A stretch of 64,000 nt of DNA from Mesotaenium endlicherianum (Eukaryota), in NCBI GenBank assembly GCA_009602735.1, contig WELA01001776.1, positions 1-64,000 on the forward strand, read 5' to 3'. Of this stretch, positions 11,498 through 64,000 are shown piece after piece; positions within the stretch are counted from its first letter, which is position 1; each line of letters starts with the position of its first letter. The translations under genes and the position numbers were made by a program. The notes under the pieces were generated by a model. The model did not search any database. It was not told the DNA's origin and saw nothing but the letters and a program-made list of their open reading frames with translations.

Positions 11498-11546
11498 CTG
11501 CGACTCCGTAATATAATATGCAAACTAGCCCAGCTCCGATACCAAA

Positions 11547-17257: not shown

Positions 17258-17262
17258 ATCGC

Positions 17263-18760: not shown

Positions 18761-19059
18761 AAATAATATGCAGCGGAGAAGTAGTCTATGACATTTTGGA
18801 CTGTTGCGCAACCTCATCGTACCTAGGATACTTCAACGAGTTGCTGCAGAACGAGACGGAAGCTTATACATCTATTAATATGCCGTCGCCATTGGTATGG
18901 CAACCCAAGAAGATGATTCAGTTGGAAGCTGTGAGTAATATAGATCGCAGCCGTAAGAGTTGTTGCCGGTACCCTGCCCAGTCACAGTAGCATTGAATTT
19001 GATGGCAAAAGTGGCACCATTGCCCCAAGCCACTGTCAAGATGGAGAATCCGTTCCGAG

Positions 19060-30570: not shown

Positions 30571-31266
30571 TTTATGCGTCAATGGGAAAGCCTCCGTTTA
30601 AACTCAGTCTAGATAGAGTCTCTAGGTCTCCCTTAGATGTCCTACGGCAGTCATCAGCTCACTCCAAGGGGATTGACAATCCAGTCTCCCTTCAGTTGAC
30701 TCAGAATTTTGTTGACACTCTATCAGAAGTTCAACACAATCTGTACAAAGTACAAAAAAACTAACAAAAATATGCCAATCAACACCGTCGGGACATGACA
30801 TTTTGTAAGGAGGACTTGGTTAAATTGCATTCTTAGCATCTGTACCTTCCTGGGGTCATCAAGAATAAAGCTTGGGCGAGTCTGGGTCGGTCCATATTTG
30901 CTGATACGCCGAGTCGGTCAGGTTGCTTACAAACTGAACATGTCAGCAAAATTCAAGGGTCACCTAGTCTTTAATGTCTCAATCCTGGAACTATACATTA
31001 AGGGCAACACACTGTTCACAGGTCGGTAACCTGTCCGACCAGGTACGATTCCCGCCGTCCAAGATGGTGACCCTGAGGAATATGAGGTGGATGAGATTCT
31101 AAAAGCTCGATCTGTCTGTTGATCATCTAAATATGTCATAAAGTATCTGGTCCAATGGAAGGATTATGATGCATCTTGGGACATCTGGGTATTTGAAGAC
31201 CATATGGTCAATGCCAAAGGGGCGTTGAAGCGTTTCTATCTTCGAGAAGCTGGGACATCACCCTAA
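30571..31266 (+). pseudogene. pol: D1 pol 3' remnant (integrase C-terminus plus chromodomain)
   Basis: Homologous to ~56440-57129 ([12 protein letters not shown]...[11 protein letters not shown]...WKDY) with stops. Confidence 0.88.
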
Positions 31267-31638: not shown

Positions 31639-33263
31639 ATGCCTACCAACCAAAAACAAGACAGGAAGCGCAAGGCCGAACTGGCTCAGAAGGAGTTGGA
31701 ACGCCATTCGCAAGAGATCACCCAGACGTCCCTTTTGCAAAGAGAGGAAGAGCGAGCTCAACAACAAGGCTGAGGAGGCCAGATTGAGGAAAGAACAGGA
31801 GGATGTTGCTGAAGCAGAAAGACTCAAGAAAGTGGAGGAAACAAGGTTGAGGAAGGCTGAGGAGGCCAAGAAGCAAGAGTGGGCCATTTACAGGTACACT
31901 GTGATAAGCCAGAACTTTGATAATCTTAGGGTAGCTTTGCTGGTTGCTCAAGAGATCAACAGGGACACTCACCAAAAATTACTCGAGAAGGAAGGGAAGG
32001 AGCCCCGGACAAGTATATAGAAACTGGCACCGATTTACGAAGATTATGCAAACATGGTGGGATACACAGAGGATGAGGCAGCAAACCTGGCCCTTGATGG
32101 AGAGTTTACACCAGTTTTGGTGCCTTGCATAGTGGGCTGCCACAGGGTCATCAGGATGGTGGCCATGGAACCAGACAGCTTCAAGGATGTCAAGCACTAT
32201 CATATGCTGATTCTTTTCTACAATGAGGTGGAGAGAAGAAGCACGGAGTCCTTGGCCTGGGAGACAGGCCTACAGATGTTTGCCCCCCACTGGTTTCCTT
32301 GCACACTGACCAAGGCCAATCATGGACAGGAGTACTACCAACATCCCACCACAGACAGGAGATGGATGACCATCATCAATGAGAAGCAGAAGTGCAAGCC
32401 AGCCCTACCTGACGATTTCCATTATGATATGGATGGATTTCTCATTCTGCCGTCTCATATTGTCCCTTGGGATCCCAGGCTCAATGACTGCCTCTCGAAC
32501 ATGAGCCGCTAAGAAGTACAGGAAGCAGGGGCGGGACTATTTCTCTAAGGAGAAGCACGCCTTTGACATATGGACAAAGCATGAAGGGCAAATAGAGCTT
32601 AGCAGGCTCAGGGTCCAGCAACCCCTAAGGAGGTCTAAAAGGGGGCAATCAGTTGACTACTCCAGGATTGCAAGGGAGATGGATGTCATGGCTGATGCTA
32701 CCCCAACCCTCTACAAGGAAAAAAGTGAGGGGGAGGAGGAACAGGAACAGGTAGTGGGAGAAGCATTCTCTTCGGGAAGAGCACAAGAGGCAGTTGAGAA
32801 GGTACCGTCTCCAGGAAGACGAGGCGTATGGGTGGTGACTTCAACTGTGGAGCCTATTTCACCTCCGCACAGGCCATCCAATCCCCTGTTACAAGTGTCT
32901 GAAAAGGAGGAGCTTACTGTCTTGGACAGCAGACCTACAAGAAGGTCTCTTGATGAGAGAACGGCTAGGAGGGTGGCCAGAGGAGTGGCCAGAGGAGTGG
33001 CAGCAACTTCCTCCAACCATGGCAATGTCCCTCTTGCCAATGTGTTTCTCCATCCTATGGGACTCCCAGTCTATGTAAGTGTCAGCACATAGGTTGCTGA
33101 GGAAAGGGCTGGAGTTTAGTTGCAGTCTCCCAAGGGGTCCTTCCTTAGAGAAAGCAGGGGTATTTAGGAGACCACCAAACAGAAGTAGAGGACGGTTTAT
33201 AGAATCCGAGTCCAGGTCTACGTATCAGTCTCTTGATCCCAGAGCCCCAGGAGCATCTCTTAA
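31639..33263 (+). pseudogene. Family-D accessory ORF, copy 1 (frameshifted)
   Basis: YRYTVISQNFDNL, MVGYT, DSFKD, YNEVERRS, HWFPC, RWMT, PWDPRLN and GNVPLANVFLHPMGLPVYV are colinear with 57397-59073. Confidence 0.88.
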
Positions 33264-33495: not shown

Positions 33496-34210
33496 TGTTA
33501 TGAATCAGCATGTTGCTGGATATGATATTCATCTAAATATAATAGCTGGTTGAGTTTAGTCTGCTGAGCTTTAGTTAATAATAGTCTGCTGGACTTTTAG
33601 TTACATTCAGTATAATGACTCAGCCCAGGGCAGCAGGCTGAAGTCAACTTTGGTCAGCTTATTGTTACATTCTTTGACAGTCAGTTGACTGCCGTACGCG
33701 GTATCAGTAAAATGCCTAGATATGCATCCAAATGTGATATGCTAGATAAATGGCTAGAGGACACCCTTGGGTGGATGGCGATTTGGGATGATAGGAGATG
33801 GCCGTACATTTGGCTAGCCGAGGTCTTACCGACGTGGTTAACTCCGGGCAGGCGGTGTCATCGCACTTGTCGTTGAACAAGTAAACTCATTCAATATACA
33901 TAGATTAGGTCACGCTCTCGAGCTCGGCATTCGAAAACGAGGTCAACTCTCTTGTACAGCTTAGTAAGAGATATTTGAATCCAAGGCGAGAAGCCATTGA
34001 TGCAAATTGTCTTCTAACCTTACTTATGTATGAGTTTATTTATTGCATGATTGATGCTCGTTTACTTGCATTTGACGCGTGAGTATTGTGATATTAGTTG
34101 TGGAGTCCTTTTCTGTGTATTGAGTAACCAGAAATGCCAGAAAGATTACTTGTTGATATGAAGATCTTTTATTAAGTGGTAATTTTCTATTGGTAAGTTG
34201 ATTCATTTCA
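33496..34210 (+). repeat. D1 3' LTR
   Basis: TGTTATGAATCAG...ATTCATTTCA, preceded by PPT aagttggagggat. Confidence 0.92.
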
Positions 34211-37520: not shown

Positions 37521-38262
37521 TGAAAGGGGCAGAGTGCCCTAGTGGAAGCGTAGTGACTCACGAGGAAAAGAACTAGTTGCAATCATACTAAAGAGTGCAG
37601 CGGCATATTGCTAAGAAAGCTTAGGAAAATTACTCCACATTTTGAGTAGCAAGAAACTGCTCACAAATGATGTAGGATAGAAGGCCTTGTCATTACAAAC
37701 CCGTAGAAATTTACAGAAGTGAAAATTGATAAGAAATGAAGTAGTTATGTCTATTTATAGTGTTCTACGACGGCCGCTCGCCCCTAGGCGAGAGGGCCGC
37801 TTAGCAACAAATTTTCCTAAGTCTTTGTCAAATCGTCCCCTCCGGAATATTCGTGAGAAAGCCAGATCAGTCTCATCTGACGTGTCGGGCTGATTTGACG
37901 TCCACATGCATGCATCGAAATATCTAGAATATACTAACTTAGACGCGCTAGGCTAATCCGAAACTTGTAGGTAAATTGACCTAGTCGGCACTCCGCGTCA
38001 GCAAAACTTACGTGAAGGTTCGAATTCACTCTAACGGCCCAGATCGCTCGACGCTATCGGTCAATCCGACGGTCGCGCTCACCGCGAATTAAGGACAGTC
38101 GTCAACCGACCTCAAAACTAATTAAACTTTGGAAATCCATCTCTCTCTCAATACTTGACCAAATTCGATGAACTTTATATCAAAATGATCACTAAAATGC
38201 ACTCTAGACTTCTATAAAGTCAAAACATACTTTCATAAAACTCAAAAATGCATTTTATAAAC

Positions 38263-41200: not shown

Positions 41201-41890
41201 TTTGAGGAAGGGGATTAGACACCACTACTTGCTCCTCCGGCGATGTACATTCGCCCAGGCTGTTAGGATTCACGCTTGCTCCACCTGATGACCTGGCCAG
41301 GGCCACCGAAACAAGGTACATCTCCTTCACCTGATTCGCCCTGCATAGCTTCTTAACTTGCAGGCTCGACAGAAGACAGTTACTTGTGGTCGCATCTACC
41401 TCTACGTGTTTCGCTGTCTCCATATGACCATCATGCCCTTGGACTTCCACTTGTCCTGTGCTCCAGTGCACTCGAGGGTTGGCTTTCCTCGGCCATGGTC
41501 GGCCCAATATCACCTCATGGTGACCCAACTCTGCCCGCTCCATAACTTCCTTACTCTGGTGCCCCGCTACTTCCACGTGAATAGCTTCCGTAGGTGCACC
41601 ACACTCGAGTCTCTGCCCATTCGCCAAAATTGCCTCCTTTGGCTCATAATTCTTCTGCTCAGGGATTTGCCACTCTTTCACCAGCTTCTTGTGCACAAAG
41701 TTTGCACTTGCGCCACTGTCAACCATACACTTCGCCTTGTTGCCGTCGACTACTCCTTCCACAATGATAGGCTTGTCAACATCTTGTCTTTCGGTTCTCG
41801 ACAGGCTCCTCGGGATAACCTTCTTGTGAGGTGACTTCTTCACGCCAGTAGACACCCCAAAACGACTTACTGGCGTCCTCCTTTTTCCTG
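38263..41890 (-). pseudogene. pol: A2 pol: PR-RT-RH-INT-chromodomain
   Basis: 767-aa PR-RT-RH ORF (catalytic FLDD mutated to FLDN), then frameshifted INT and chromodomain. Confidence 0.94.
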
Positions 41891-42807
41891 TTGTTGAGGT
41901 TGCTTCGCCTTCATACGACAGTGTTGAGCCAGATGTCCAAGCTTGCCACAATTATAGCAGGGTCCTCTTGGCTTAAAATTTTGCTGCCTGCGTTGGTACT
42001 GAACAAGTCCCAAGTCTATAGGTATCGGACCTTGAACACTCGTGCTTGAGATCCAAAGTGTCGATATCCTCCAAAGTTGTGGCTGCCCCACTGCCTCTGA
42101 CTATACTCCACAGCGTCGACACTTGTTGCCAATGCCATCATTTCTCCAAGACTGGTAGGGTCCTTGAGCGCCACTTCCTTGGTCCCAGTTGTCTTGAGTT
42201 CCCTTTTGAACTTGTCCATTATCTCCGACTCGTGCATGGACGGAAATTCAAGCACCAGCTCGTTGAAGCACGAAACATACTCTTGAACACTTCCTCGTTG
42301 ACGAAGGCGCACCAATAGATCTCGTGTAGTAGCCTCGGGTGCAATAGGTTGAAATTGCCTCTTCAAGCCTTCAAAGAGCTGATCAATAGTAGCAGGGACT
42401 CCAGACAGCTGCTCCTGTCGCTCACACCAAGCTCTAGCACTCTTCTTCAGCAAAGTAATCACAAAGGCGACTTGCCTGTGGGGCGTGAGCGCAGAATACT
42501 CCATAAACTTCTTCACTCCAAAAATCCATTGATGAACAGCCGGCGATCCACGCTCTCCAGTATAAACTTCAGGCTTAGGCGCACGCACTCCTGATGCGGG
42601 TGGAATAACTGGTTGCACCACTGGATTAACATGAATGGGTGGCACAACAGGTACCGAACTCGTCGAAGCGGCGTCCCCCATAACAACTCGCACAATTCTC
42701 TCCACCTCCGCGCGCATATTTTGTTGAAACTGGGTGTAGACTTCTCCTCCAATTGCATTCGTCATTTGCCTCAGCATCGTCTGCATTTCTTGTTGCTCTC
42801 TGGTCAT
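41867..42807 (-). pseudogene. gag: A2 gag
   Basis: Close homologue of A1 gag; frameshift near 42045; [14 protein letters not shown]. Confidence 0.92.
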
Positions 42808-43682
42808 CGTTGGTGCTGCCTGTTGCCCCGCGCGCTCAACATGCTCGACATGTTCACCTCCTCCAGCTGCCGACTGCGACTCCGTAATATAATATGCAAA
42901 CTAGCCCAGCTTCGATACCAGATGAAAGGGGCAGAGTGCCCTAGTGGAACCGTAGTGACTCACGAGGAAAAGAACTAGTTGCAATCATACTAAAGAGTGC
43001 AGCGGCATATTGCTAAGAAAGCTTAGGAAAATTACTCAACGTTTAGAGTAGCAAGAAATTGCTCACACATGATGTAGGATAGGAGGCCTTGTCATTACAA
43101 ATCCGTAGAAATTTACAGAAGTGAAAATCGATAAGAAATGAAGTAGTTATGTCTATTTATAGTTTTTTACGACGTCCGCTCGCCCCTAGGCGGGAGGGCC
43201 GCTTAGCAACGGACTTTCCTAGGAGTTTGTCAAATTGTCCCTTCTAGAATTATCGTGAGAAAGCCAGATCAGTCTCATTTGACGTGTCGGGCCGATTTGA
43301 CGTCTACGTGCATGCATCAAAATATCTAGAATATACTAACTTAGACGCGCTAGGCTAATCCGAAACTTCTAGGTAAATCGACCTAGTCGGCACTCCGCGT
43401 CAGCCAAACTTACGTGAAGGTTCGAATCCACTCTAACGGCCCAGATCGCTTGACGCTGTCGGTCAATCCGACGGTCGCGCTCACCGCAAATTAAGGACAG
43501 TCGTCAACCGACCTCAAAATTAATTAAACTTTGGAAATCCCTAACTCTCTCAATACTTAACTAAATTCGATGAACTTTATATCAAAATGATCACTAAAAT
43601 GCACCCTAGACTTCTATAAAGTCAGGACTTTCTTTCATGAAACTCAAAAATTGACTTTATATACCTATGACCATACATCGCC

Positions 43683-44285
43683 ATACCAGATCCTGTTTGG
43701 AAGGAGCCCAATAGTGCCCAGCATCAGATAGTGAAGAGGTCAAAGATCTGGACAGCATGAGCTGTTTAAAGTCATGGTACACCGGAAGGCGTTATTTGAA
43801 TGCATGATGCCATGCGTTCAAATAACGCTCTGTTGCTCTGGACAACTTGAAAATTGCGCGAAAAAGAGACACACAACGCTATGTAAAGACACAAGGTGGA
43901 AGCTACCGCCTACAGATGACTCAGATTAAAGGAGATTTTGTCTACAGAAAGCGGCAGACCAAGACCACCATCGACACTAGTTCAGGTGCATTAACCTTGC
44001 GCGTGAAACATGCTTTTGGAAATGGTGCGCTAGAGTTGGAAGGCTCTGACGGCAGAATCATGAGGGATCATGTGTAGAATTGCTCGCTATGCCATTTGCC
44101 AAATATCAACCCAACGGTGAAGGCTGTGCCGGAGGAATTGGTGCCACTCACACCTTGTGCCAATTGCAAAGTGCTGGATGACCAAGAGGCTATGGTAACT
44201 TGCGATAAGTGTGGTGTTGAATGGCACACATTTTGCATTGGTGATGAAGAAGTCATGGGAGGACGCTAGGAATTCCCCACTGCCT
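43683..44285 (+). pseudogene. Element B integrase C-terminus plus PHD finger
   Basis: PYQILFGR resumes after the TSD; GALELEGSDG...NCSLCHLP; CANC-x10-CDKC-x4-H-x2-C from 44156, with a decayed W-x-C-P-x-C. Confidence 0.82.
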
Positions 44286-48247: not shown

Positions 48248-48961
48248 AGTGATAAATCAGTATATTGGTAGATAAAGTATTCATTTAAATGCAGTACTTA
48301 ATTAAGTTAAGTCTGCTCAATTTTAGTTGATATGAAGTCTGCTGGACTCTTAGTTATATTCAGTATAATGACTCAACCGATAGCAGCAGGCTAAAGTCCA
48401 CTTGAAACAGCTTGCTGCCACATTCTTTGACAGCCAGCTGATCGCCGTACGTGGTACCAGTAAATTGCCTAGTTCTGCATCTAAGTGTGATATGCTAGGT
48501 GAATGGCCGGATGATACTTTAGGTGGATGACAATTCGGGATGATGGGAGATGGCTGTGGATTTGGTTAGCCGAGGTCCTACCGACGAGTAACTCTTGGGT
48601 AGGCGGTGCAATCGCACTTGTCGTTGAACAATAAACTCATTCCATGTACGTATGCTAGGCAATGCTACTGAGTTTGGCATTTGGAAACGAGGCCAATTCT
48701 CTGTACAAAAGACCAAGAGCACATCTGAATCCAAGGCTGCAAGCCGTTACACGAACTGCTTACTAACCTTGCTTATGAATGAGTTTACTGATTGGACAAT
48801 TGATGCACGTTACTTGCATTTGACTTGTGAGTATTGCTTACTGCTAGTGATGTTGTCTTTTGCTGTTTAATAAGTAAATAGGAAATTCTATATAGATTAC
48901 TTGCAAATGTGAAGATCGTTTGATAACTGTTTATCGCATATAAGTAAGTCGATTTATTTTA
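48248..48961 (+). repeat. Diverged family-D solo LTR
   Basis: Full-length colinear similarity to 51087-51831; no PBS or PPT adjacent. Confidence 0.85.
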
Positions 48962-49808: not shown

Positions 49809-50313
49809 TGTAATGAAAAAGTATATTGGTATATATATATGAAAATAGTATTTTGTAATAGTTAAATGAGTTCACTTTGCTAAAGTTTAGTCAATATCAA
49901 GTCCGCTGGACTTCTAGTAATAATCAGTATAATGACCTAGCCGAGAGGAGCACGCTGAAGTGTACTTAAATCAGCTTGCTGACGCATTCTTTGACTGCCA
50001 GCTGACCGTCTTGAGCGGTACTAGCAAATTGCCTAGTAATGGATCCTTTTGTGATATGCTAGAACAGTGTCCAGATGACACCTTAGGGGGATTGCCATTC
50101 GAGATGATGGGAGAAGGTAGTGGATTTGATTATTTGATGTCCTATTGACCAGGTTATCTCCTAGGTAGGCGGTGCCATTACAGTGGCTCTTGAACATTAA
50201 ACTCATTCCATGTACATATGCTAGGTTTGCTATCAGGTTCGGCATTTGGAAACGAGGCTAACATACTGTACATACTACAAAAAGAATTATTAGATCCAAG
50301 GCTGCAAGCTATT
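49809..50313 (+). repeat. Old family-D LTR truncated by insertion of D3
   Basis: TGTAATGAA... colinear with the D LTR up to ccaaggctgcaagc, then an inverted D LTR begins. Confidence 0.8.
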
Positions 50314-51832
50314 TGAAATGAATCGACTTACTAAAACGGCGATTAACAATTAATGAAGATCTTTATATCAGCAAGTAATCTTTATGGTATTTTCTGTTGA
50401 TTGATTAAACAGCAAAAGACAACACACTAGCAGTGGACGATACTTGTAAGTCAAATGGTAGTAAACTAGCGTCAATGATGCAATCAGTAAACTCACACAT
50501 AAGCAAGGCTAGGAGACAGTGCGTATCAATGGCTTCTCGCCTTGGATCCAGATCTCTCTCAGTAAGCAGTACAAGAGAGTTGGCCTCGTTTTCGAATGCC
50601 GAACTCGAGAGCAATACCTAGCATATGTACATGGAATGAGTTTACTGTTCAACGGCCAGTGCGATGGCACCGCCTACCCGGGAGTTAACCACGTTGGTAG
50701 GACCTCAGTTCACCAAATCCACCACCATCTCCTATCATCCCGAATCGCCATCCATCCTAAGGATGTCATCTGGCCATTCATCTAGCACACCACACTTAGG
50801 TGCGTATCTAGGCAGTTCGCTGCTACCAAGTATGGAAGTCAGCTGGCTGGCAAAGAATGTGTCAGCAAGCTGACCTAGTAGACTTCAACCTGCTGCCCCC
50901 AGCTGAGTCATTAGACTGATTATTTTATAAAATCCAGTAGACTCAATATTGACTAAAATTTAGCAAGTATTTATTTCACTATTATATTTAAATGAATATC
51001 ATATCAACCAATATACTGATTCATCACAATCCCTCCACCTTAACATGTTGTCGCCTCGACAACACCAACACTAGTAACAGCGTGCTTGTAATGAATCAGT
51101 ATATTAGTAGATATAATATTCATTTAAATGTAATAGTTAATTTAGTTCAGCCTGCTGAACTTTAGTTAGTAGTCAGTCTGCTGAACTTTAGTTAATAATC
51201 AGTCTGCTGGACTTTACACAATTATCAGTTTAATGACTCGGCCAAAAGCAGCAGGCTGGAGTCAACTTAAGTCAGCTTGCTGACACATTCTTTGACAGCC
51301 AGCTGACTTCCGTGCTCGGTAGCAGCGAACTGCCTTGATATGCATCTAAGTACCACCTGCTAGATGAATGGCCAGATGACATCCCCATGATGGATGGCTA
51401 TTCGGGATGATGGGAGATGGCGGTGGATTTGGTTAACCGAGGTCCTACCAACGTGGTTAACTCCCGGGTAGGCGGTGCCATCGCACTGACCGTTGAACAG
51501 TAAACTCATTCCATGTACATATGCTAGGCATTGCTCTCGAGTTCGGCATTCGGAAACGAGGCCAACTCTCTTGTACAGCTTACTGAGAGAGATCTGAATC
51601 CAAGGCGAGAAGCCATTGATACGCACTGTCTTCTAACCTTGCTTATGTATGAGTTTACTGATTTGCATCATTGATGCTAGTTTACTCGCATTTGACTTAC
51701 GAGTATTATTCCCTGCTAGTGTATTGTCCTTTGCCGTTTAACTAGTTAACGGAAATACCATAAAGATTACTTGCTGATATAAAGATCTTTATTAATTGTT
51801 AATCGCCTATTTGGTAAGTCGATTCATTTCAG

Positions 51833-51844
51833 TGGTATCGGAGC
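51833..51844 (+). promoter_or_regulatory. Primer binding site (initiator tRNA-Met type)
   Basis: TGGTATCGGAGC, 1 nt after the LTR end. Confidence 0.9.
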
Positions 51845-51865
51845 AGTTATCACAGTCTTCTTTGT

Positions 51866-53344
51866 ATGGTAAGGACAAGGTCTCAAACTAGCAACTCCCG
51901 AGACATGGAGAACCAGGATAACGAGAATGTCGAAAACCAGGCGGAAAGCCATGTAGCGGGAAACCGTACCTATTCGGAAGCAGTAGCGGATACTGCAGCT
52001 AGGGAGGCAGCAGATGAGGCAGCTGCTATTGCCTCAGTCGCAGCTCAGCAAGCTGAGGAGGAGATAGCCAGACTAGAAGCTGAACAAGTAGCAAAGGCCG
52101 CTGAAGATATACAAAGGAGGGAAGGACAGCCAGCTGACGAGCGCACTGTTGAAGAACTTATGGCATCAAGGGCCAATGTTCTGAACCCACCTCCTGCCGT
52201 ACAACTCAATGTACCCCTAGGTCAAATACGTGACCGGCTGAATGCGGCAGGAATTGCTGCTGCAGGAGCAAGAGGGATTGTTGAGGACACTACTCAGCGA
52301 GTAGATGCCAATGCTGCTGCTGCATTTGCTAATCTACCACCCCAAAATGTAGACTTGGGAGCATTGTTCGTTCAGATGCAGTCGCAAATGGCGACCATGT
52401 ATCAGTCCCAGCAGGAGGACAAAAGAATCATAATGTCCCTACTCCGGGACAGAGACCAACTGGGGTCTCACACCACTAGTGGTGGTGGCCGAGGGCCTAG
52501 TAAGCCCAAGCCGAAACCTCCCCAGGACTATGATCCTGAGGGAAACAGAAAATATTACCTGATCAAGTTTCTCGCGGATGTTGAGCAGTGGCTGGAGAAC
52601 TACCCAGAACTGCAAGATTACGAGAAGGTCAGGCACACCGGTGCGCTACTGAAAGGCAGTGCCGCAGACTGGTGGCTTTACTGGAAGGAAGAGCGTAAGG
52701 CTCGGCAACTCGGTGACCCTACGTGGGTAGAGTTTGTCGAGAAGTTGCATGAGAAGTTTGATGTCATCAACCAGCAGGAGAAAGCTATCTATGCGATGAT
52801 CTCCCTGACACTGAAGCAGACCACTTCAGTTGCTGAGTTTGCTCAAAAGTTCCAAGAGAACATGATGAAGCAGCCTGATTTGCCAGAACGGTATAGGATA
52901 GCATACTTCAGGTATGGCTTGAAATCCGAGGTCTCTGGTCATTTTGCTGAGAAAAAGTATGAGAAACTGGCTGACTTGATCCAGGATGCTGACGCCTGGG
53001 ATCAGCAGCAGTTCAATCACAAGCGCCAGAGTAACGCTTTGGTGTCTAAGATTGTCAAAAAGCCCCACGGTTCCTACAATGCAGTTGAAGGAGACCAGGC
53101 TGAGGATAATCAGGGTGATGAATATGAGTATGAGTACAATGCTATTCAGTCTAGAGGTAGAGGTGGTCCCTCTCGAGGTGGCTATGGAAGGGGTGGTGGT
53201 AGGACTAAGCCGAGACCAGCCTCAGCAAAATCTACTTGCTACCATTGTCAGCAGAAAGGCCACTACAGAGAACAGTGTCCGGTCAAGCACCTGCCTAAGG
53301 TCGAGAGAAAAGACCAGCCTTTAAAAGACAGCAACAGTCAGTAA
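51866..53344 (+). CDS. gag: Gag, 492 aa
   Basis: [22 protein letters not shown]-rich tract and [14 protein letters not shown] knuckle. Confidence 0.96.
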
Positions 53345-56300
53345 TCCAGTCTACTGACTGTGAGGATGCTAGAGATAGTGAGTCGTCACTAGCTGCCCTC
53401 GTAGCAGGTATTATGGGTCCTGCTGAACTGGATTCACTATGCATGCCTGACAACCAGATAAAGGAGACCATCAGCAATATAGACGTCCAGAGAGTGCACA
53501 CTCTGGATGCTCTTGTTCCACCTGATGTCCAACATTTCTTTGCTACGTCAGGAGAACAATGCGAAAGTCAGGAAAAGACAGTCCCCCCTATCCTACTGCA
53601 TTGCATGATTGCAGGTAGGAAGGTGAGGGCATTTGTTGACGGAGGGGCGTCACATACTTTTATCCACAAGGACTTAGTTAAGCGGCTAAGGCTGCCTACT
53701 GTCACCCAAGGGAATAGAAAAATATTCCTTGGAGATGCCTCAAGTATCCCGGGAGGAGTTATAACCAAGCCTATTGAGGTCCAGTTAGGTTCTGGCATTG
53801 CAGTTCTAACTGAAACGCTTACATTTGAGGTACTCAACACTGGCTTTTATGATCTCGTGCTAGGCAGGTCCTGGCTTAATAGACATCAAGCTGAAGTGTG
53901 TTGGAGCAGAGGTACAGTTAAAGTGAGAGGAGCCAGTGATGGGCAGACTGACTTGGCACCCACCAGTGCTCTTCCTCTTGTCCTGTGTGGATGGCAAATG
54001 AAGGAAAAGAAGAGGCTTCCAGAAGGATGCAAGTTGCTGAATGCAATGGAGTTCGTCAAAAGCTGGAACCAGAAGGAAGACAGAATGTTCTGTCTGCTGC
54101 TAAGAGAGGTACCTCCTCAACCTGAAGAAGTGGTTGAGAAAAAGGTACACCCTCCGGAACACCCTACTGCTGCAAACATTGTTGCTCAGTACACGGATGT
54201 GTTTAATATGCCTCCAGGACTACCCCCTAAGCGGGAAGTAGATCATAGGATTGATTTATTACCTGGTAGCCAGCCACCCTGGCAACGCACGTATGGCTTG
54301 TCTTATTTGGAGAGTGAGGAGTTGAAAACACAGATTGCAGAGCTGGAGGAAAATGGTTACATTTCTCCCAGTAAATCACCGTACGGCGCACCTATCCTAT
54401 TTGTTAAGAAAAAGGATGGCAGTATGCGGATGTGTGTGGATTACAGAGCCCTGAACAGAATTACAGTAAAGAACAAGTATGCTTTACCCAGAATCGAGGA
54501 CTTGCTTGATACCCTGTCTGGCGCTAAGGTGTTCAGTAAGATAGATCTCAAGAGTGGTTATCATCAAATCAGAATTGCTGAGGGGGATGAACACAAGACT
54601 GCTTTCCGCACACGTTATGGACACTATGAGTTCAACGTGATGCCATTTGGACTGACTAATGCTCCTGCTACCTTTATGGGTGCTATGAATGACATTTTCA
54701 GACCTTATTTGGATAAGTTTGTGCAAGTTTTCCTGGATGATATTTTAATTTTCTCTAAAGATGAAGCTCAGCACACTGAACACTTAAAGAAAGTGCTGGA
54801 CACTCTGCGGAAAAATCACTTGTATGCTAAAATGAGCAAGTGTGATTTCTTTAAGGAAAGTATTGAATTCTTAGGCCACGTTGTCAGTAAAGAGGGCATC
54901 AGTGTGGATCCTAAGAAAGTCCAGACCATAAGGGACTGGCCAGTACCACAGTCTGTCTCTGAAGTTAGATCCTTCCTCGGGTTGGCTAACTACTATAGGA
55001 GATTTATTGAGAATTATTCCACAAAGGCCAGTAAACTGACTGACCTTACTAAGAAAGACATCGGGTATGTGTGGGGGGAAGAGCAGCAGGCTGCCTTCCA
55101 GACCCTTAAAGATGCCCTTTGTTCTGCCCCAGTGCTAGCCGTGTATGACCCCAGCAAACCGGTGCAGGTGGTTACTGATGCCTCTGATTTTGCCATGGGT
55201 GCTATTTTGTTGCAGCCTGCTGACAAAACCACAAAGGATGGTAAGGTACGGCAGGAGTGGCATCCTGTGTTGTATGAGTCTATGAAATTTAATCCAGCGG
55301 AGATTAATTACTCAGTGCATGATAAAGAGCTGCTAGCTATCATTCATGTACTCAAACAGTGGAGAGCATACTTACATGGTAAAGCTTTTAAGGTGATTAC
55401 AGATCATCTAGCTCTGACCCACTTTCAGAAGAAGTCCAAGCTGTCGAGGAGGGAGAACCGCTGGAGCCAGATGCTGGAGCAGTTCCAAGTCCAGATCGAC
55501 TACAAACCAGGGAAGTTGAATCCTGCTGATGCACTCTCTAGAAGACCTGACTTGCAAGAAAGGAACTTTAGTCAGCATGCTGTAGATAAAGTCCTGTGTG
55601 CACTCACTTCACTAAAGGTGAAAAAGTCCTTCCTTGAACAACTTAGGAAAGCCTACCTTTCTGACCCAACATTTGAGCCCAGCCCCACTACTGGTGTGTG
55701 TCGTGCTACTGCACTCGGGTATAAGCTCAAGGGAGGGGTCTGGGTGACTGAAACCACTTCAGGCAGGCTGAAGCTGGTCATTCCTAATAATTTGGAAATA
55801 AGGTCTCTCTTACTGAGTCAAGCTCATGACAGTCTCCTGGGTGGACATTTGGGGCAGGCCAAAACTGTTGGCAAACTGGCAAAACATTATCATTGGGAGC
55901 AGTTACCCCGGGAGGTCTTGAAATATGTCAAGTCCTGTGACCAGTGTCAGAGAAATAAGTCTCGGCACACACCACCCGGAGGTCTCTTGCAACCGCTACC
56001 CATCCCAGCGGGACGTTGGGAAACTATATCCATGGACTGGGTGGTCTCACTACCACGAACGGCCAACGGGCATGATTCATTACTGGTAGTCGTGGATAAA
56101 TTGACAAAAATGGTCATTTTTATACCCACAACTGTCAAAGTAACTGCACTCGAAACAGCGAGACAGTTTTACAACCATGTAGTTTGCCAACATGGGCTCC
56201 CTTCTAATATCATCTCAGACAGAGACTCAAAATTCACCTCTAAGTTCTGGAGAGCTTTAATGGGGTTAATGGGAGTCAAACAGCTGCTCAGCACAGCAAA

Positions 56301-57129
56301 CCACCCTCAGACTGATGGGCAGACTGAAAGAACTAACCGAGTTCTGCAGGAGGTGCTGAGAGCATATATTAACCAAAAACAAGATAATTGGGATGACCTG
56401 TTGCCTCAAATTCAGTTTGCGGTCAACAGTGCGGTGCACGCGTCAACGGGCAAAACTCCTTTTGAACTCAGCCTGGGTAGAGTCCCTAAGTCCCCTCTAG
56501 ATGTGCTAAGGGAATCTTTAACTCACCTTCAAGGGATTGACAACCCGGTCTCCCTCCAGTTAACTCAGGAGTTTGCTGACACCCTGTCAGAAGTCCAACG
56601 AAACTTGCACACGGCCCAAGAAAACCAACAAAAATACGCTAATCAACACCGTCGGGAACTGACATTTTCCAAGGGGGATTTAGTCAAACTGCATTCTCAA
56701 CACCTGTACCTCCCTGGTGTGGTCAAGAAAAAGCTTGGCCCTGTCTGGGTCGGTCCATATTCGGTGGTCCGTCGTGTCGGTCAGAATGCTTACAAACTGA
56801 ACATGTCAGCTGAATACAAGGGGCACCCGGTCTTTAATGTCTCCTTCCTGGAACCGTACATCAAAGGTGATACACTGTTCACAGGTCGGTTCCCTGTCCA
56901 ACCGGGACCGGTCCCCGCTGTCCGGGACGGCGACCCTGAGGAATATGAGGTCGATGAGATTTTAGACGCTCGCTCGGTCCGTCGATCGTCTAAATATGTC
57001 ATGAAATACCTCATTCGATGGAAGGGTTACGATGCCTCTGGGGACACTTGGGAGTTTAAGGACCACTTGACCAATGCCAAAGGGGCGTTGACACGGTTCC
57101 ACCTTCGGGCCGCTGGAGTCCCTCCATAA
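53320..57129 (+). CDS. pol: Pol (PR-RT-RH-INT-chromodomain), probably made by -1 frameshift from gag
   Basis: Frame open from 53320; VDGGAS, FLDD, TDAS...[25 protein letters not shown]...YLIRWKGY...TWE. Confidence 0.96.
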
Positions 57130-57292
57130 CTGTCATTTCAGTTGACACGGGAAGGTGACAGGCGGTCCTGTCTCCATTTAAGTTGGAGGGGAAAATATAT
57201 GACAGTTAGTGAGCGAGAGCGATAAAAACACACTCATACGTTTATGTGTAGCGCATCGCAACTACGTCAACTTTTAGCAATCATCCTGTAAG

Positions 57293-57395
57293 GTAAACAG
57301 CAGCGAAGCCACTATACTAAATACTAACATACTTCCTGCAATCCCTATGACAAAGGTCCATATCCTACTAACTTGTGCCCTGGTTACATGTGCAG
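57293..57395 (+). other. Putative 5'-UTR intron of the accessory ORF
   Basis: AAG|GTAAAC donor, TACTAAC branch point at 57366-57372, GCAG|G acceptor 1 nt before the ATG; equivalents in the other two copies. Confidence 0.65.
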
Positions 57396-57396
57396 G

Positions 57397-59073
57397 ATGG
57401 CGCCCACCACACAAAAGGAGGACAGAAAGCGCAAGGCAGAAGAAGCCAGGAGGACAATGGAGCAATACCAGAAGGAGCTGGCGGCGACGTCCCTCACCAG
57501 GAGAGAACAAGAAAGGGTCCGCAAACAACAAGAGGCGGCAGAAGAGGCACAGAGGAAGAAGGATCAGGAAGCGGAAAACCTCAGGAAGGCTGAGGAGGAG
57601 AGACAGAAGAAACAGCAAGAAGAAGCGGCAGCGGCAGAAGAGGAGAAAAGAAAAAAGATTGAAGCGGACAGACAGAAGAGCTTGGCCACTTACAGGTATA
57701 CTGTGGTGGGTGGCCAAAACTTCGATAACCTGAAGGAAGCATTGCTGGCAGCCCAGGAGATCAACAGGCTGGAACAGACAACACTGCTACAGAAGGAAGG
57801 AGCTACAGCACTGGACAGGTACATCGAGACACACACCGGCGTGGTCCTTTACGAAGATTATGCTAAGATGGTGGGCTATACAGCAGAGCAGGCCCGGTAT
57901 CTCGCAGATGATTCAGAGGACAAGCCGGTCCCCATACCGGGAATAGTGGGAGATCAGAGACTCATCCGGATGGTGAGCATGCGGCCCGATAGCTTTAAGG
58001 ATACGGTATTCTACCTCACACTCCTGCCAGCTTACAATGAAGTTGAGAGAAGGAGCTGGGAGTACTTGGCCAGGGAAGCAGGACAGCAGATGTTCTCTCC
58101 CCACTGGTTCCCGTGTAAACTGAGGAAGGCTGAGCACGGACCCCAGTACTACCAGCAGCCAACAGACTGGAGGTGGATGACCGTCACAAATAAGAAGCAG
58201 GAGTGTGACCGAGCCCAACCGGATGACTTCCACTATGGCCTAGACGGCTATCTCATCCTACCACCTCACATTGCCCCTTGGGACCCCAGGCTGAATGGAT
58301 GCCTGAGCAATATGAATGCAGAGACCAAGGAACATAGGAGGAGGGGAAGAGACTACTTCTCTAAGGGAAAGCATGCCTTTGTCAAATGGGCAAAGAATGC
58401 AGGCCGGATAGATATCAGTAGGCTGAAGGCCAAGCAACCTCCAGCGCGCCCTAAGAAAGGGAGGTCGGTAGACTACTCCATGTCTACTAGGGAGCAGGAC
58501 GACTTAGTGGACGAGACCCCTACTCTCTCCGAGGAGGAGGATGAGGAGGCTGAGGAAGAAGAACAGGGCAGAGGAGAAGCATCAGCAGCAGGTACTCAGG
58601 ATACCCAGGGACAGGTAGGGGCGCTTCTTAAAGAACCACGATCAGGTGTTTGGAATGTGATCCCCGTTATGGCGACTACTGGACCCCGCGCTCGCTCCCA
58701 CAGCCCACCTGCCCAAGCAGGGGAAGAAGCTGATCTGACTGTATTGGGCAGCAGACACAGGCAGAAATCCCCAGAGGACAGGGGTGCCAGAAGAGGGACA
58801 CGCGGGTGGGCCAGAGGTATGCCAGCCTCCCCCTCCGCTCAGGGGCATGTACCTCTAGCCAATGTATTTCAGCATCCTACTGGAATGCCTGTCTATGTGG
58901 GCATCAACACCCAAGTGGTTGAAGAGCAGGCTACCATCCTTCGTTCTCCTCGAGGTCCAACTTTAGAGCAAACCGGGTTCTTTAGAAGGCCAGCTGACAG
59001 ACCTAGAGGGCTGTCCAGATCTAGGTCCAGATCTCCGTCCCCTGATCCTGAAGCCCCAGGAACCACCCCTTAA
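57397..59073 (+). CDS. Accessory protein of unknown function, 558 aa (coiled-coil N-terminus, conserved globular core, acidic and RS/SP-rich tail)
   Basis: Intact sense ORF between pol and the PPT; homologues at 31639-33263 and 59963-61619; the ATG in GCAGGATG is conserved in all three. Confidence 0.9.
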   Translation: MAPTTQKEDRKRKAEEARRTMEQYQKELAATSLTRREQERVRKQQEAAEEAQRKKDQEAENLRKAEEERQKKQQEEAAAAEEEKRKKIEADRQKSLATYRYTVVGGQNFDNLKEALLAAQEINRLEQTTLLQKEGATALDRYIETHTGVVLYEDYAKMVGYTAEQARYLADDSEDKPVPIPGIVGDQRLIRMVSMRPDSFKDTVFYLTLLPAYNEVERRSWEYLAREAGQQMFSPHWFPCKLRKAEHGPQYYQQPTDWRWMTVTNKKQECDRAQPDDFHYGLDGYLILPPHIAPWDPRLNGCLSNMNAETKEHRRRGRDYFSKGKHAFVKWAKNAGRIDISRLKAKQPPARPKKGRSVDYSMSTREQDDLVDETPTLSEEEDEEAEEEEQGRGEASAAGTQDTQGQVGALLKEPRSGVWNVIPVMATTGPRARSHSPPAQAGEEADLTVLGSRHRQKSPEDRGARRGTRGWARGMPASPSAQGHVPLANVFQHPTGMPVYVGINTQVVEEQATILRSPRGPTLEQTGFFRRPADRPRGLSRSRSRSPSPDPEAPGTTP

Positions 59074-59962
59074 GGTGACAGGCTGAAAAGATAGTCAGTA
59101 AGGGAGGCTGGTCAGGGTCAGTTTCCTTATTTAAAGCTTTTGCAGTTTAATGTTGTCGAGGCGACAACAAGTTAAGTTGGAGGGATTGTAATGAATCAGT
59201 ATATTAGTAGATATAATATTCATTTAAATATAATAGTTAATTTAGTTCAGCCTGCTGAACTTTAGTTAGTAGTCAGCCTGCTGAACTTTAGTTAATAATC
59301 AGTCTGCTGGACTTTACATAATTATCAGTTTAATGACTCGGCCGAAAGCAGCAGGCTGAAGTCAACTTAAGTCAGCTTGCTGACACATTCTTTGACAGCC
59401 AGCTGACTTCCGTACTCGGTAGCAGCGAACTGCCTCGATATGCATCTAAGTGTGATATGCTAGATGAATGGCCAGATGACATCCCTATGATGGATGGCTA
59501 TTCGGGATGATGGGAGATGGCGGTGGATTTGGTTAACCGAGGTCCTACCAACGTGGTTAACTCCCGGGTAGGCGGTGCCATCGCACTGACCGTTGAACAG
59601 TAAACTCATTCCATGTACATATGCTAGGCATTGCTCTCGAGTTCGGCATTCGGAAACGAGGCCAACTCTCTTGTACAGCTTACTGAGAGACATCTGAATC
59701 CAAGGCGAGAGCCATTGATACGCACTGTCTTCTAACCTTGCTTATGTATGAGTTTACTGATTTGCATTATTGATGCTAGTTTACTCTCATTTGACTGACG
59801 AGTAGTATTCCCTGCTAGTGTATTGTCCTTTGCCGTCTAACGAGTTAACGGAAATACCATAAAGATTACTTGCTGATATAAAGATCTTTATTAATTGTCA
59901 ATCGCCTGTTTGGTAAGTCGATTCATTTCAGTGCTGTCCCTTCCGCCTCCAGCCTACTGCCA

Positions 59963-61619
59963 TTAGGAGGGAGATGTCCTTGGGGCCCTATACTCAGGGG
60001 AGCCAGACCTCGTCTTGTCTTGGGGTCTCCTGAAGCCTGGGGGATCCGCGTAGGGGCCTCGCGGAGAACGCAGTAACTGGGCTGTTTCCTCCGGCGCAGT
60101 CTGAAACTGAATGTAGGTAGCCTTCTCCTAGGCAGCCCTCATACTGTCAGGTACATATATCGGCATCCCAAAAGAATGTTGCATGACATGAGCCAAGGGC
60201 ACATGCCCTCTCTGCGAGGGAGATGCTGGCAGGCCTCTGGCTATCTCTCTAGCAGCCCTCCTGTCTGCCCTGTCTGACTGGGTCTCCGTGCCTGCTGATG
60301 AGCTCTGTCCTCTGGCCGTTCCCAGCCAAGTGATATCCTCCTCTTCAGCTAGCTGTTGCAAGGCCAATCCAGTCTTCTCCCTTACAGGGGATGTGGCAGG
60401 TGTCACGATCACAGCGGGGCTCATGTCCTCCTCCTTGCCTTCCTCTTCTTCTTCCTCTGATCCCTCCTCCTCTCCTTCCCTTGATTCCTCTGAGACTGCT
60501 GGAGTCTCTTCTATCAGAAGCTCTAGCTCTTCCCAAGAAAAAGAATATCCCACTGACCTTCCCCTTTTGGGTGCTGGTGGAGGCTGTTGAGTCCAGACCG
60601 CATATAGGTCCTTTTCTCCCTGCTTTGCCCATTTGGCATAAGCATGCTTTCCTCTAGAGAATGACTCACGAACCCTGCTCCTGTCCTCCTGCATTTCTCG
60701 GCTCATGCAGTCTCTTACTCCATCCAGTTTTGGGTCCCAAGCGGCAATATGAGGAGGCAACACTATGTTCCCCCGTAGGTCCGTTAGGAAGTCTTCCTCC
60801 CTTGCCTTGTCATTTTTGCTGGTCCCTCATGTTGATGGTCATCCACCGCCAATTGGTGGGCTTCTGGAAGAAGGCAGGGTCTGTCCTTTTAAGAGTACAA
60901 GGGTACCAGTGCCCTGCAAAGTCCAGCTGACTGGTTTCTCTTGCCAAAAATTCCCAGCTTCTTCTCTCCACCTCATTATACATGACCTTGAACCTGTTGT
61001 GGGATGTAGAGTCCTTAAAGCTGTCCGCGCCCATGGAGATCATCCTGATGACCCTATCTTTCCCCTAGATACTCGGAATCGATACAGCTCCTGTTTCTTT
61101 CATTTGGGCCATTGCCTTGGCCTTTTTGATCGTACATCCTACCATCCTGGCATAATCGTGGTAGAGGAAGAGTCCTGTGCTGACCTCTATATACTTGTCG
61201 AAGTTTTCAGATGTCTCCCCTTCCCTCTGGAGGATGTCCTGCTGTGCTTCACTGCGAATTCTCTGGGCATACTTGAAGGCCTCCTCCAGTAGATCAAAGC
61301 CCTTGCCCAGCACTGTGTAGCGGTAGCTGCTGATTCTCCTCTGTTCTTCTTCGTCAGCCTGCTGCTTCTGCCTCTCTTCAGCTTGCCTCTCCTCTTCCAC
61401 CTTCTTGGCCTCCTCTGCAGCTTTTCTTTCCAGTTCTTTCTGCCTCAGCCTGGCCTGCTCCTCCTCCTCCTTCTTCTTCTGTGCCTCCCGCTGTTGTTGG
61501 AGTTGTTGTGATTCCCGAGCGGAGATGGAGGATAATTCGATGTCGCCATAAAACTGCAAGTATTTTGCGTGTGCCTCTTCCGCTCTTCTCTTCCTCTTAA
61601 GCTCTAACTTCTGAGTCAT
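59963..61619 (-). pseudogene. Family-D accessory ORF, copy 3 (stops and a frameshift)
   Basis: YRYTVLG, LYHDYARMVG, DSFKD, YNEVERRSWEFLARE, HWYPC, WRWMT, LPPHIAAWDPKL, FSRGKHAY, ASPSQRGHVPLA. Confidence 0.88.
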
Positions 61620-61977: not shown

Positions 61978-64000
61978 TTAGGGAAGGGTGCCAGCCGCCC
62001 TGAGGTGGAACCGTTTCAACGCCCCTTTGGCATTGGTCAGTTGGTCTTTAAATTCCCAAGTGTCTCCAGAGGCATCGTAACCCTTCCATCTGACCAGGTG
62101 CTTCATGACATATTTAGATGATCGACGGACAGAGCGAGCGTCTAAAATCTCCTCGACCTCATATTCCTCAGGGTCACCATCCCGGACAGCGGGGACCGGT
62201 CCCGGTTGGACAGGTAACCGACTTGTGAACAATGTGTCACCTTTCATGTACGGTTCGAGGAAGGAGACATTACAGGCCGGGTGACCCTTGTATTCCGCTG
62301 ACATGTTCTATTTGCAAGCATTTTGATCGACACGGCGCACCATCGAATATAGACCGACCCAGACAGGACCAAGCTTTTTCTTGACCACCCCAGGCAGGTA
62401 CAGGTGTTGAGAATGCAGTTTGACCAAATCGCCCTTAGAAAATGTCAGTTCTCGACAGTGCAGATTAGCGTATTTTTGTTGGTTTTCCTGGGCTTTGTGC
62501 AGGTTCTGTTGGACTTCTGACAAGGTGTCAGCAAACTCCTGAGTTAACTGGACGGAGACCAAATTGTCAATCCCTTCAAGGTGAGTTAAAGATTCCCCTA
62601 GCACATCTAAAGGAGACTTAGGGACTCTACCCGAGCTCAATTCAAAAGGAGACTTGCCCGTTGACGCGTGCACCGCACTGTTGACCGCAAACTGCATTTG
62701 AGGTAACAGGTCATCCCAATTGTCTTGCTTTTGGTTAATATATGCTCTCAGCACCTCTTGCAGAACTTGATTAGTTCTTTCAGTCTGCCCATCAGTCTGA
62801 GGGTGGTTTGCTGCGCTGAGCAGCTGTTTAACTCCCGTTAACCCCATTAAAGCTCTCCAGAACTTAGAGGTAAATTTTGAGTCTTTGTTTGAGATAATAT
62901 TTGAGTGTAGCCCATGTTGGCATACTACATGGTTGAAGAACTGTCTCGCTATTTCAAGTGCAGTTACTTTGACAGTTGTGGGGATGAAAATGACCATTTT
63001 TGTTAGTTTATCCAAGACTACCAGTATTGAATGCCCATTGGCAGTTCGTGGCAGTGTTACCACCCAGTCCCTGGATATTGTTTCCCAGCGTCCAGCTGGG
63101 ATGGGCAGCGATTGTTAGAGACCCCCCGATGGTGTGTCTCTAGACTTATTTCTTTGACACTGATCACAAGACTTAACATATTTAAAGACCTCCCGAGGTA
63201 ATCCCTCCCCAATGATAATGTTTTGCCAGTTTGCCAACAGTTTTGGCCTGCCCCAAATGCCCACACAGTAAACGGTCATGTGCTTAACTCAGTAAACGGG
63301 ACCTCATTTCCAAGTTATAAGGAATGACCAGCTTCAGCCTGCTTGAAGTGGTTTCAGTCACTTAGACCCCACCCTTGAGCTTATACCCGAGTGCGGTAGC
63401 ACGACACATACCAGTAGTGGGGCTGGGCTCAAATGTTGGGTCAGAAAGGTAGGCTTTCCTAAGTTGCTCAAGGAAGGACTTTTTCACCTTTAGTGAAGTG
63501 AGTGCACACAGGACTTTATCTACAGCATGCTGACTAAAGTTCCTTTCTTGCAAGTTTGGTCTTCTAGAGAGTGCATCAGCAGGATTCAACTTCCCTGGTT
63601 TGTAGTCAATCTGGACTTGAAGCTGCTCCAGCATCTCGCTCCAGCGGTTCTCCCNAATCTGGACTTGAAGCTGCTCCAGCATCTCGCTCCAGCGGTTCTC
63701 CCTCCTTGACAGCTTGGACTTCTTCTGAAAGTGAGTCAGAGCTAGATGATCTGTAATCACCTTAAAAGCTTTACCATGTAAGTATGCTCTCCATTGTTTG
63801 AGCACATGAATGATAGCTAGCATCTCTTTATCATGCNTCTCTTTATCATGCACAGAGTAATTAATCTCAGCTGGATTAAATTTCCTAGACTCGTACAACA
63901 CAGGATGCCACTCCTGTTTTACCTTACCATCCTTTGTGGTTTTGTCAGCAGGCTGCAACAAAATAGCACCCATGGCAAAGTCGGAAGCATCAATAATCAC
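61978..64000 (-). pseudogene. pol: D3 pol 3' part (RH-INT-chromodomain), decayed
   Basis: Nearly identical in protein to D2 pol, with several stops and frameshifts. Confidence 0.93.

Follow-up and report, generated by a model that had tools for sequence, protein, structure and literature searches.

In the 64,000-nt stretch of DNA analyzed here (the window), an intact chromovirus carries a third gene, ORF3, that lies after pol and before the 3' LTR. ORF3 is a real gene, an orphan accessory ORF with a core that evolves under purifying selection. What is new here comprises the protein family, as judged from database searches, its occurrence in an element with a group I chromodomain, its probable splicing and the likely exchange of old alleles between element lineages. 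The preliminary description of this locus, which had proposed a selected, family-wide nuclear accessory factor, included neither the conserved splice acceptor nor the likely cassette exchange.

ORF3 is an intact gene in an intact element

The element that carries the intact ORF3 (copy 1) is complete, as first described (Table 1). Its LTRs are 96.9% identical (22 substitutions in 744 aligned sites). They are flanked by a target-site duplication and enclose open gag and pol genes and a PBS that we take to be of the tRNA-Met type. A 26-nt repeat is present three times in U3 of the 5' LTR, and a stem-loop (fold z -2.9) begins 7 nt 3' of the predicted frameshift heptamer. The order PR-RT-RH-IN and the C-terminal chromodomain of its integrase (Pfam Chromo, E 2e-8, pol residues 1178-1230) make copy 1 a chromovirus (Ty3/gypsy). 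Between the pol stop (57129) and ORF3 lie 268 nt, and 113 nt separate ORF3 from the 3' LTR. An in-frame ATG 9 nt further upstream (57388) falls inside a predicted intron and is missing from the other copies.

Table 1. Coordinates of the ORF3-bearing element, its cassette and protein, and related copies in the window. Slashes in motifs mark predicted exon-intron borders.
Feature	Position	Strand	Remarks
Target-site duplication	51082..51086; second copy 59931-59935	+	GTGCT, 5 bp
5' LTR	51087..51831	+	745 nt, TG...CA
Donor-like site G/GTAAGT	51813/51814	+	near 3' end of 5' LTR
PBS	51833..51844	+	
gag	51866..53344	+	Ty3 capsid, zinc knuckle; intact
Predicted -1 frameshift heptamer	53320..53326	+	T TTA AAA
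pol	53299..57129	+	PR-RT-RH-IN-chromodomain (Pfam); open
Post-pol conserved stem	57127..57212	+	encloses PPT-like copy (57179-57191); left border of cassette
Exchangeable cassette	57213..59150	+	~1.9 kb: upstream region, predicted intron, ORF3, 3' UTR
Predicted 5'-UTR intron	57293..57395	+	103 nt; AG/GTAAAC donor, CTAAC branch 25 nt before CAG/G-ATG
ORF3	57397..59073	+	558 aa without internal stop
Charged helix	ORF3 residues 1-97		27 K/R, 24 D/E
Conserved core	ORF3 residues 98-345		~250 aa, 29 aromatic residues
Basic motif and acidic tract	ORF3 residues 346-400		
Disordered linker	after acidic tract		short conserved motifs
Acidic SIM-like stretch	ORF3 residues 443-450		pattern at homologous place in 2 of 3 copies
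R-rich repeat	ORF3 residues 462-474		
Conserved island	ORF3 residues 481-505		
P/R/S-rich tail	C-terminal end of ORF3		
8-bp hairpin, then PPT	59151..59186	+	right border of cassette
3' LTR	59187..59930	+	
Copy 2 ORF3	31639..33261	+	tblastn E 1e-134; stops and frameshifts
Copy 3 ORF3	59963..61619	-	tblastn E 4e-91; two stops, one frameshift
Copy 3 PPT and 3' LTR	51086-50314	-	continued past the insertion of copy 1

Colinear homologues had been reported in two other insertions, and tblastn confirms them, both as broken genes. The element of copy 2 is itself 5'-truncated (pol end 30576-31266, LTR 33498-34210). Core identity to copy 1 is 65% for copy 2 and 50% for copy 3, with a range of 44-65% among the alleles, and 160 residues are identical across all three copies. 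The core sequence blocks listed in the preliminary description proved invariant or almost so. ORF3 is present in all three internal copies of the family in the window, in keeping with a family-wide accessory gene; a six-frame HMM scan of the window found no fourth allele. In DNA run X1, summed contig depth at 90% identity, which is not a measure of copy number, was 0.49-0.57 million for ORF3 versus 0.75-1.02 million for pol.

The insertion site of copy 1 lies in the 3' end of copy 3, ~40 nt upstream of the PPT of that element. Many LTRs of the ORF3-bearing family lie in the window, together with several copies of a neighboring chromovirus family that lacks ORF3 and has a PBS identical to that of copy 1. 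A decayed neighboring element contains a piece of cytosine methyltransferase, a gene described from charophyte gypsy elements (PMC5890265).

The ORF3 core is under purifying selection

Pairwise dN/dS for the core was 0.14 (copies 1 and 2, 229 codons) and 0.18 (copies 1 and 3, 242 codons), values that are rough because core dS, at 1.6-2.3, is close to saturation. They are comparable to those for pol (0.16-0.17) and are not near 1, as the proposal of a selected gene had predicted. Third positions accounted for 107 of the 204 core mismatches between copies 1 and 2, and for 132 of 295 between copies 1 and 3. When copy 3 was compared with reads and contigs of its own allele class, 12 of the 19 ORF differences listed, these being the best-supported rows of the table, fell at third positions (P 0.007). 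These data show that the ORF3 core is under purifying selection.

The predicted protein begins with a stretch that had been likened to a coiled coil. AlphaFold predicts it as one long helix (pLDDT 83-94 over residues 11-90), and it may form a lone charged helix instead of a coiled coil. The basic, NLS-like motifs pointed out earlier are kept in all three copies: a K-R-K-R-type motif (residues 10-12) and K-[KR]-G (353-355). The TM segment is absent, again as described, the highest 19-residue Kyte-Doolittle mean being 0.73. The SRSRSRSPSP tail is a strict RS repeat in copy 1 and is absent as such in copies 2 and 3. C240 is the only Cys invariant in the three copies. ORF3 also has several S/T-P sites; its NES matches stem from a loose pattern.

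Searches return no relative of ORF3

A phmmer search of 1,835,955,588 representative proteins with the core gave no hit at E 0.001. In a 5.8-billion set, 0 of 3863 candidates (lengths 306-977) matched residues 85-350, and 0 of 3969 (lengths 23-450) matched the ORF3 alignment; longer fusion proteins were covered by the 1.84-billion representative search alone. Pfam returned low-complexity helix matches alone. One fragment matched Obc1_C (E 0.002, 17 bits, cut-off 27); the match was absent from scans of the full-length protein and of the other copies, and we attribute it to chance. Nothing appeared below E 0.15 in PHROGs or below E 0.2 among PDB sequences, and the best values in the ESM Atlas (Basidiomycota clusters) were under the useful level, with 0.85 reached by the core and 0.75 by the full protein. 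Among metagenome and viral contigs, 0 of 78 and 0 of 5 pattern matches were confirmed, and the PPT/LTR pattern had no match. Rfam gave no real match.

The AlphaFold models have pLDDT 50 (full length) and 40 (core). With them, Foldseek found nothing with E under 0.001 in PDB or BFVD, and the best VIA-align Z was 4.3. Because models at this confidence are too poor, these searches are uninformative on the ORF3 fold. A likeness of the core motif F-x-x-H-W-[FY]-P-C to Agenet/Tudor strands found no support in the Pfam and PDB sequence searches. The preliminary description did not recognize the domain, and no relative emerged from the protein sets, Pfam or PDB. By these searches, the ORF3 protein is a new family. 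No paper on it, or on cassette exchange of chromovirus ORFs, was found among open-licence titles and abstract openings.

ORF3 alleles lie on a cassette that was probably exchanged

Nucleotide identity between copies 1 and 3 drops from ~89% to ~60% after ~57212 and returns at 59151; it is 89% over the pol end and the LTR and 64% over the ORF3 core. For copies 1 and 2, identity is 78% at the pol end, 83% in the LTR and 70% in the ORF3 core. Fourfold sites show the same pattern. Between copies 1 and 3 they differ at 67 of 101 sites (66%) in ORF3 versus 21 of 101 (21%) at the pol end (Fisher P 8e-11). Between copies 2 and 3 the counts are 52 of 74 versus 28 of 77 (P 4e-5); for copies 1 and 2 the difference is marginal (66 of 114 versus 38 of 87 in pol, P 0.048). 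Such a gap at silent sites is beyond the reach of faster protein evolution, and we therefore infer recombination. The 66% versus 21% difference between copies 1 and 3 makes it likely that old alleles were swapped between backbones. The groupings also conflict, copy 1 joining copy 3 by pol and LTR and copy 2 by ORF3.

Reads pass from the copy 1 backbone to the copy 3 cassette at 57191, and one contig joins the copy 3 cassette to the common PPT at 59147. Two allele classes coexist in DNA runs X3 and X5, at a contig depth of ~3:1. Comparison of the three copies thus indicates that old ORF3 alleles have likely been exchanged between element lineages. Accessory genes can have a history apart from that of the element that carries them.

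The two borders of the cassette have distinct features. The post-pol stem at the left border is 81-87% identical among the three copies, which exceeds the adjacent pol in two of the three pairs, and it folds better than shuffled sequences (z -2.8, -3.2 and -1.8). Clustered TGACAG repeats after pol form the arms of this predicted RNA stem. A reading of TGACAG as a KNOX/BELL promoter motif was rejected, since the sequence is not enriched in the window (49 versus 51 expected) and fits stem arms better. At the right border, the hairpin is not ORF3-specific, since the PPT of the ORF3-less family has a comparable hairpin before it. Very probably, exchange of the cassette would come about when the template switches from one co-packaged RNA to another, at the shared stem/PPT-like block and the shared hairpin-PPT.

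ORF3 is probably spliced

In each of the three copies, CAG/G stands right before the ORF3 ATG and a YTRAY branch point lies 25-26 nt upstream; the upstream regions are otherwise 59-66% alike. By criteria chosen after sight of these sites, the arrangement occurs at 4 of the 2278 ATGs of the window, three of which are the ORF3 copies. Because branch point and acceptor are present in all three copies, it is highly probable that the ORF3 mRNA is spliced there. Two routes can be envisaged. Transcription could start at an internal promoter, with a leader intron of 100-125 nt; in the three copies, the distance to a donor-like site upstream is 103, 125 and 108 nt. Alternatively, a long splice could use the donor-like site near the 3' end of the 5' LTR, in which case the PBS would be removed too. 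GTAAGT was found near the 3' end of five of the six family LTR ends examined and is absent in the ORF3-less neighboring family.

Collapsed family contigs retain the predicted intron, with one difference in X3 (57120-57766) and none in X5 (57225-57587). With even depth and a retained intron, X3 behaves like DNA and was therefore not used as evidence for expression.

For expression, three polyA RNA runs without tissue or stage label were used, and 6-12% of each was read. Expression of an intact copy had been put forward as a check on the gene, and for the intact allele this check was negative in these runs: at 90% identity, depth over 57297-58916 of copy 1 was zero in all three runs, and at 80% identity the depth over the ORF was at most 1.1 (two runs). 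The copy 3 allele class had 11 reads from three starts in X23, in the sense orientation for most stranded libraries, and a few antisense reads too. No spliced ORF3 read was among the joints listed for the polyA runs. Since gag and pol were nearly silent as well, the family is off in these samples.

The element has a group I chromodomain

The aromatic cage of the copy 1 chromodomain, Y-W-Y, is complete (EYEV...RWKGY). This is the cage of group I chromodomains, found in Chlamyvir, Tcn1 and some Galadriel elements (PMC3350952). According to the available REXdb account, plant chromoviruses of this group are confined to algae, mosses and club-mosses (PMC6317226). Among pol proteins, the closest show ~50% identity; the best named ones, from Closterium and Haematococcus, are 43-45% identical over the full region. 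A quick RT tree was built from 56 rows; of the nameless hits, 25 were retained by identity and the others dropped. Copy 1 fell outside a 100%-supported group of 13 angiosperm hits, a placement to be read with its long branch and with hits that bear no clade labels. Among the algal and metagenomic rows it has no clear branch in this tree, which includes no labeled references. Together with the chromodomain group, the named pol relatives and the nearby cytosine methyltransferase piece, this makes a non-seed plant or streptophyte alga the probable host. By sequence, then, the element appears to have neither mark of Tekay: a group II chromodomain that lacks the first aromatic residue, or an RT in the seed-plant clade.

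Other traits point in different directions. As described in the REXdb account, Tcn1 elements are self-priming in 83% of cases and have a tRNA-Met PBS in 5%, and Chlamyvir elements, whose hosts are algae, have a tRNA-Met PBS in 41% and a gag-stop-pol layout in 80% (PMC6317226). The overlapping gag and pol frames of copy 1 match Tcn1 and not Chlamyvir, whereas its tRNA-Met PBS matches Chlamyvir. The RT of Tcn1 clades with Tf1/Sushi.

Relation to other accessory genes

Plant LTR retrotransposons have an established class of sense ORFs 3' of pol, named eORF-3'F (PMC6317226) or aORF-3S (PMC7264820). ORF3 has the properties of this class: it has at least 250 codons (558 here), is separate, downstream and in sense, has short internal repeats only, and is conserved, occurring in 3 of 3 internal copies with dN/dS below 0.2. 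REXdb gives the share of elements with an eORF-3'F as 74% for SIRE, 22% for Retand and 18% of 782 for Tekay, and the available portion of that account lists none for Chlamyvir (44 elements), Tcn1 (1500), Reina, Galadriel or CRM (PMC6317226). The earlier statement that chromoviruses usually encode only Gag and Pol is thus too strong for chromoviruses as a whole; it agrees with what is listed for Chlamyvir and Tcn1. Most extra ORFs in REXdb have no known domain (PMC6317226), and their role in plant LTR retrotransposons is described as an open question (PMC7264820). ORF3 differs from this class in residing in a group-I-chromodomain element, on a cassette with divergent, exchanged alleles, and from its env-like members in lacking a TM segment.

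Among chromoviruses, Tekay elements come closest. REXdb reports an eORF-5'F in 33% of them (PMC6317226), and conserved, NLS-bearing 5' aORFs are described from sunflower Tekay (PMC11728184). Like ORF3, the Tekay genes are conserved orphan ORFs with an NLS, helices and long disordered regions. However, they belong to seed-plant elements with group II chromodomains, the sunflower ORF lies upstream of gag, and database searches found no sequence similarity between ORF3 and Tekay extra ORFs.

CERV of the Caenorhabditis elegans element Cer1 is orphan, spliced and nuclear, and is partly encoded at the same position (PMC10309623). Yet some exons are common to CERV and gag, and CERV contains a G-protein-like domain and a Cys loop that is essential; nothing of this kind is seen in ORF3; the invariant four-cysteine loop of its M domain contrasts with the one invariant Cys of ORF3. 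Its export function is demonstrated, whereas for ORF3 we infer one. Gene23 of Grande and the Retand aORFs also follow pol, and gene23, which has a promoter of its own, gives a nuclear product, as far as PMC7264820 describes them; but these genes are antisense, reside in non-chromoviruses and match Transposase_28 or SMC-like domains, which ORF3 lacks. Multiple PPTs are described from the Sirevirus linker (PMC2829016). Those elements are Ty1/copia and most of their extra PPTs follow the ORF, whereas here the PPT-like motif precedes ORF3 and marks a cassette border.

Possible functions of ORF3

The most likely function of ORF3 is, in our tentative view, nuclear: it would promote export of the element's unspliced RNA, in the manner of HIV Rev and CERV. 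An element that replicates through RNA and keeps splice sites must get unspliced RNA to the cytoplasm. That RNA would also have to cope with the >2 kb of 3' UTR that follow the pol stop. In this model, the basic motifs would take ORF3 into the nucleus, where it would oligomerize via the N-terminal helix and bind the conserved post-pol stem, a candidate cis RNA target, keeping unspliced genomic RNA exported and stable. The export step, comprising nuclear entry, oligomerization and stem binding, is the weak link of this model. Sequence and structure searches found no homologue or fold linking ORF3 to RNA. Moreover, the intron argument needs no protein, because unspliced RNA is exported by Rev in HIV but by a cis element alone in MPMV (PMC10309623). 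Alleles with cores that are 44-65% identical, on backbones with nearly the same stem, fit a contest with a host factor as well as they fit housekeeping export.

If the export model is true, ORF3 would be a Rev-like factor outside animals. We consider doubtful the larger picture of a complex-retrovirus-like chromovirus in a non-seed plant or alga, in which a spliced, Rev-like protein of a new family would bind a post-pol RNA stem, and ancient alleles would act as plug-in cassettes, exchanged at duplicated polypurine tracts and maintained by balancing selection. An intact gene in a young, complete and very abundant element, with predicted splice sites, a candidate RNA target and natural alleles on backbones that are almost identical, makes allele-by-target tests straightforward.

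We favor export over the VANC-like role suggested in the preliminary description, which is possible but somewhat less probable. In that anti-silencing or transactivating role, ORF3 would bind DNA motifs of its own family, such as the TGACAG repeats that follow pol or the 26-nt repeats of U3, and lift or prevent methylation and heterochromatin there. Silencing pressure on the element is real, as judged from CpG depletion in its coding parts (o/e 0.41-0.49) and near silence in the three polyA runs. Abundance of the family is very high (of the 676,385 contigs of X1, 62,973 fell on the element), and its old, divergent alleles match an arms race. The nuclear-type motifs, long N-terminal helix and acidic tract of ORF3 are also compatible. 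VANC, too, is a family-specific, fast-evolving accessory protein of a silenced element, its targets form tandem repeats (PMC5735166) as the triple repeat of the LTR does, and it is predicted to oligomerize via coiled coils (PMC13547354).

However, this role found no direct support. VANC is a protein of VANDAL elements, which are Mutator-like DNA transposons, and its structure is related to that of MAIN (PMC13547354), whereas sequence searches found no similarity of ORF3 to VANC- or MAIN-like domains and, in Pfam, none to the PMD, MAIN, Transposase_28 or Athila ORF1 families. Repeats in U3 are common in LTRs, and the TGACAG copies, not enriched in the window, cluster as predicted RNA stem arms. 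Related VANCs hit different motifs (PMC5735166), whereas 50%-identical ORF3 alleles share 89%-identical LTRs. Were ORF3 nonetheless anti-silencing, a retrotransposon would possess a counterpart of VANC.

Counter-defence against host restriction at the RNA or protein level (small-RNA silencing, NMD or a restriction factor), with alleles that track host variants, seems unlikely. Near-saturated alleles on young backbones, in two classes at ~3:1, do resemble balancing selection. The disordered C-terminal half, with its conserved SIM-like stretch and island, is typical of host-binding segments, and accessory proteins of transposable elements are predicted to have many host contacts (PMC13547354). 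Against this, pairwise tests show purifying and not positive selection on the core, and the SIM-like pattern is at the homologous place in two of the three copies only.

It is improbable that ORF3 is a cofactor of the integrase complex in nuclear import or integration, steering insertion into, for example, copies of its own family. The NLS-like motifs, the position of copy 1 inside copy 3 and the many family LTRs in the window would suit such a cofactor; but a single nested case says little in a window so rich in repeats, the ORF3-less neighboring family is multi-copy there too, and the group I chromodomain is already a known route to heterochromatin (PMC3350952). Slightly less probable still is a selfish passenger or factor of competition between lineages that spreads by template switching without benefit to the backbone. 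Duplicated PPT-like motifs stand at the two ends of the cassette, it probably brings splice signals of its own, and it has likely passed from one backbone to another. Yet its core and C-terminal islands are under steady purifying selection, no cassette-free sibling exists among the three internal copies of the window, and contig depth in X5 is about equal for the pol end (64) and ORF3 (61-68).

It is very improbable that ORF3 encodes an env-like protein of the membrane or movement type or stems from a fragment of a host gene captured recently: position and strand are those of env-like ORFs, which can be spliced (PMC7264820), but the hydropathy maximum noted above largely refutes the env-like option, protein database searches found no host homologue, and the alleles diverged under selection inside the family.

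A chromovirus family without ORF3

The window also holds a second chromovirus family that lacks ORF3, the orphan accessory gene, and provides a natural control for the ORF3-bearing family of the intact element (copy 1). Both families have the same primer binding site. In the ORF3-less family, pol is followed directly by a hairpin and then the polypurine tract (PPT), and the LTR end is devoid of GTAAGT, the donor-like site of copy 1. From sequence, a –1 gag-pol frameshift site is predicted in copy 1.

Features of the window
Feature	Position	Strand	Remarks
Second chromovirus family, without ORF3	about 6100–12300 and 37500–43700	–	
Solo or truncated LTRs, family of copy 1	1–139, 21232–21813, 21834–22350, 48249–48959, 49872–50313		
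Second PPT-like motif, upstream of ORF3	31376	+	copy 2
Second PPT-like motif, upstream of ORF3	61858	–	copy 3
C5 cytosine methyltransferase piece	19234–19488	+	PF00145, E 1.4e-10
Stretch related to methyltransferase-bearing decayed region	near 12600–13400		
Slippery heptamer and stem-loop	53320–53400		copy 1 gag-pol

Possible origin and spread of the cassette

In the broken copies 2 and 3, the second PPT-like motif is followed by TG, as at an LTR start, and may be a relic of cassette acquisition; copy 1 lacks this arrangement. At 57226, twelve contigs of DNA run X1 diverge from the element; the different sequence that follows may represent an additional type of cassette. Across runs X1–X20, five organism labels contained 66–87% of the words sampled from the ORF3 region; these labels represent either close relatives or mixed samples where only the high-copy repeat assembled.

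Solo and truncated LTRs are 74–99% identical to that of copy 1. Copy 3 pol (62000–64000) contains Ns and short duplicated stretches, possibly assembly artefacts.

Three polyA RNA runs (X22–X24) gave reads on the LTR end (51627–51896) and pol end (56757–57026). Most of these reads are antisense and they extend into unrelated flanks, a pattern suggestive of host or read-through transcripts that include pieces of the family.

A decayed retroelement-like region (17200–21200) carries the methyltransferase piece downstream of protease-like sequence, recalling KnitGypsy-Dnmt3 of Klebsormidium (PMC5890265).
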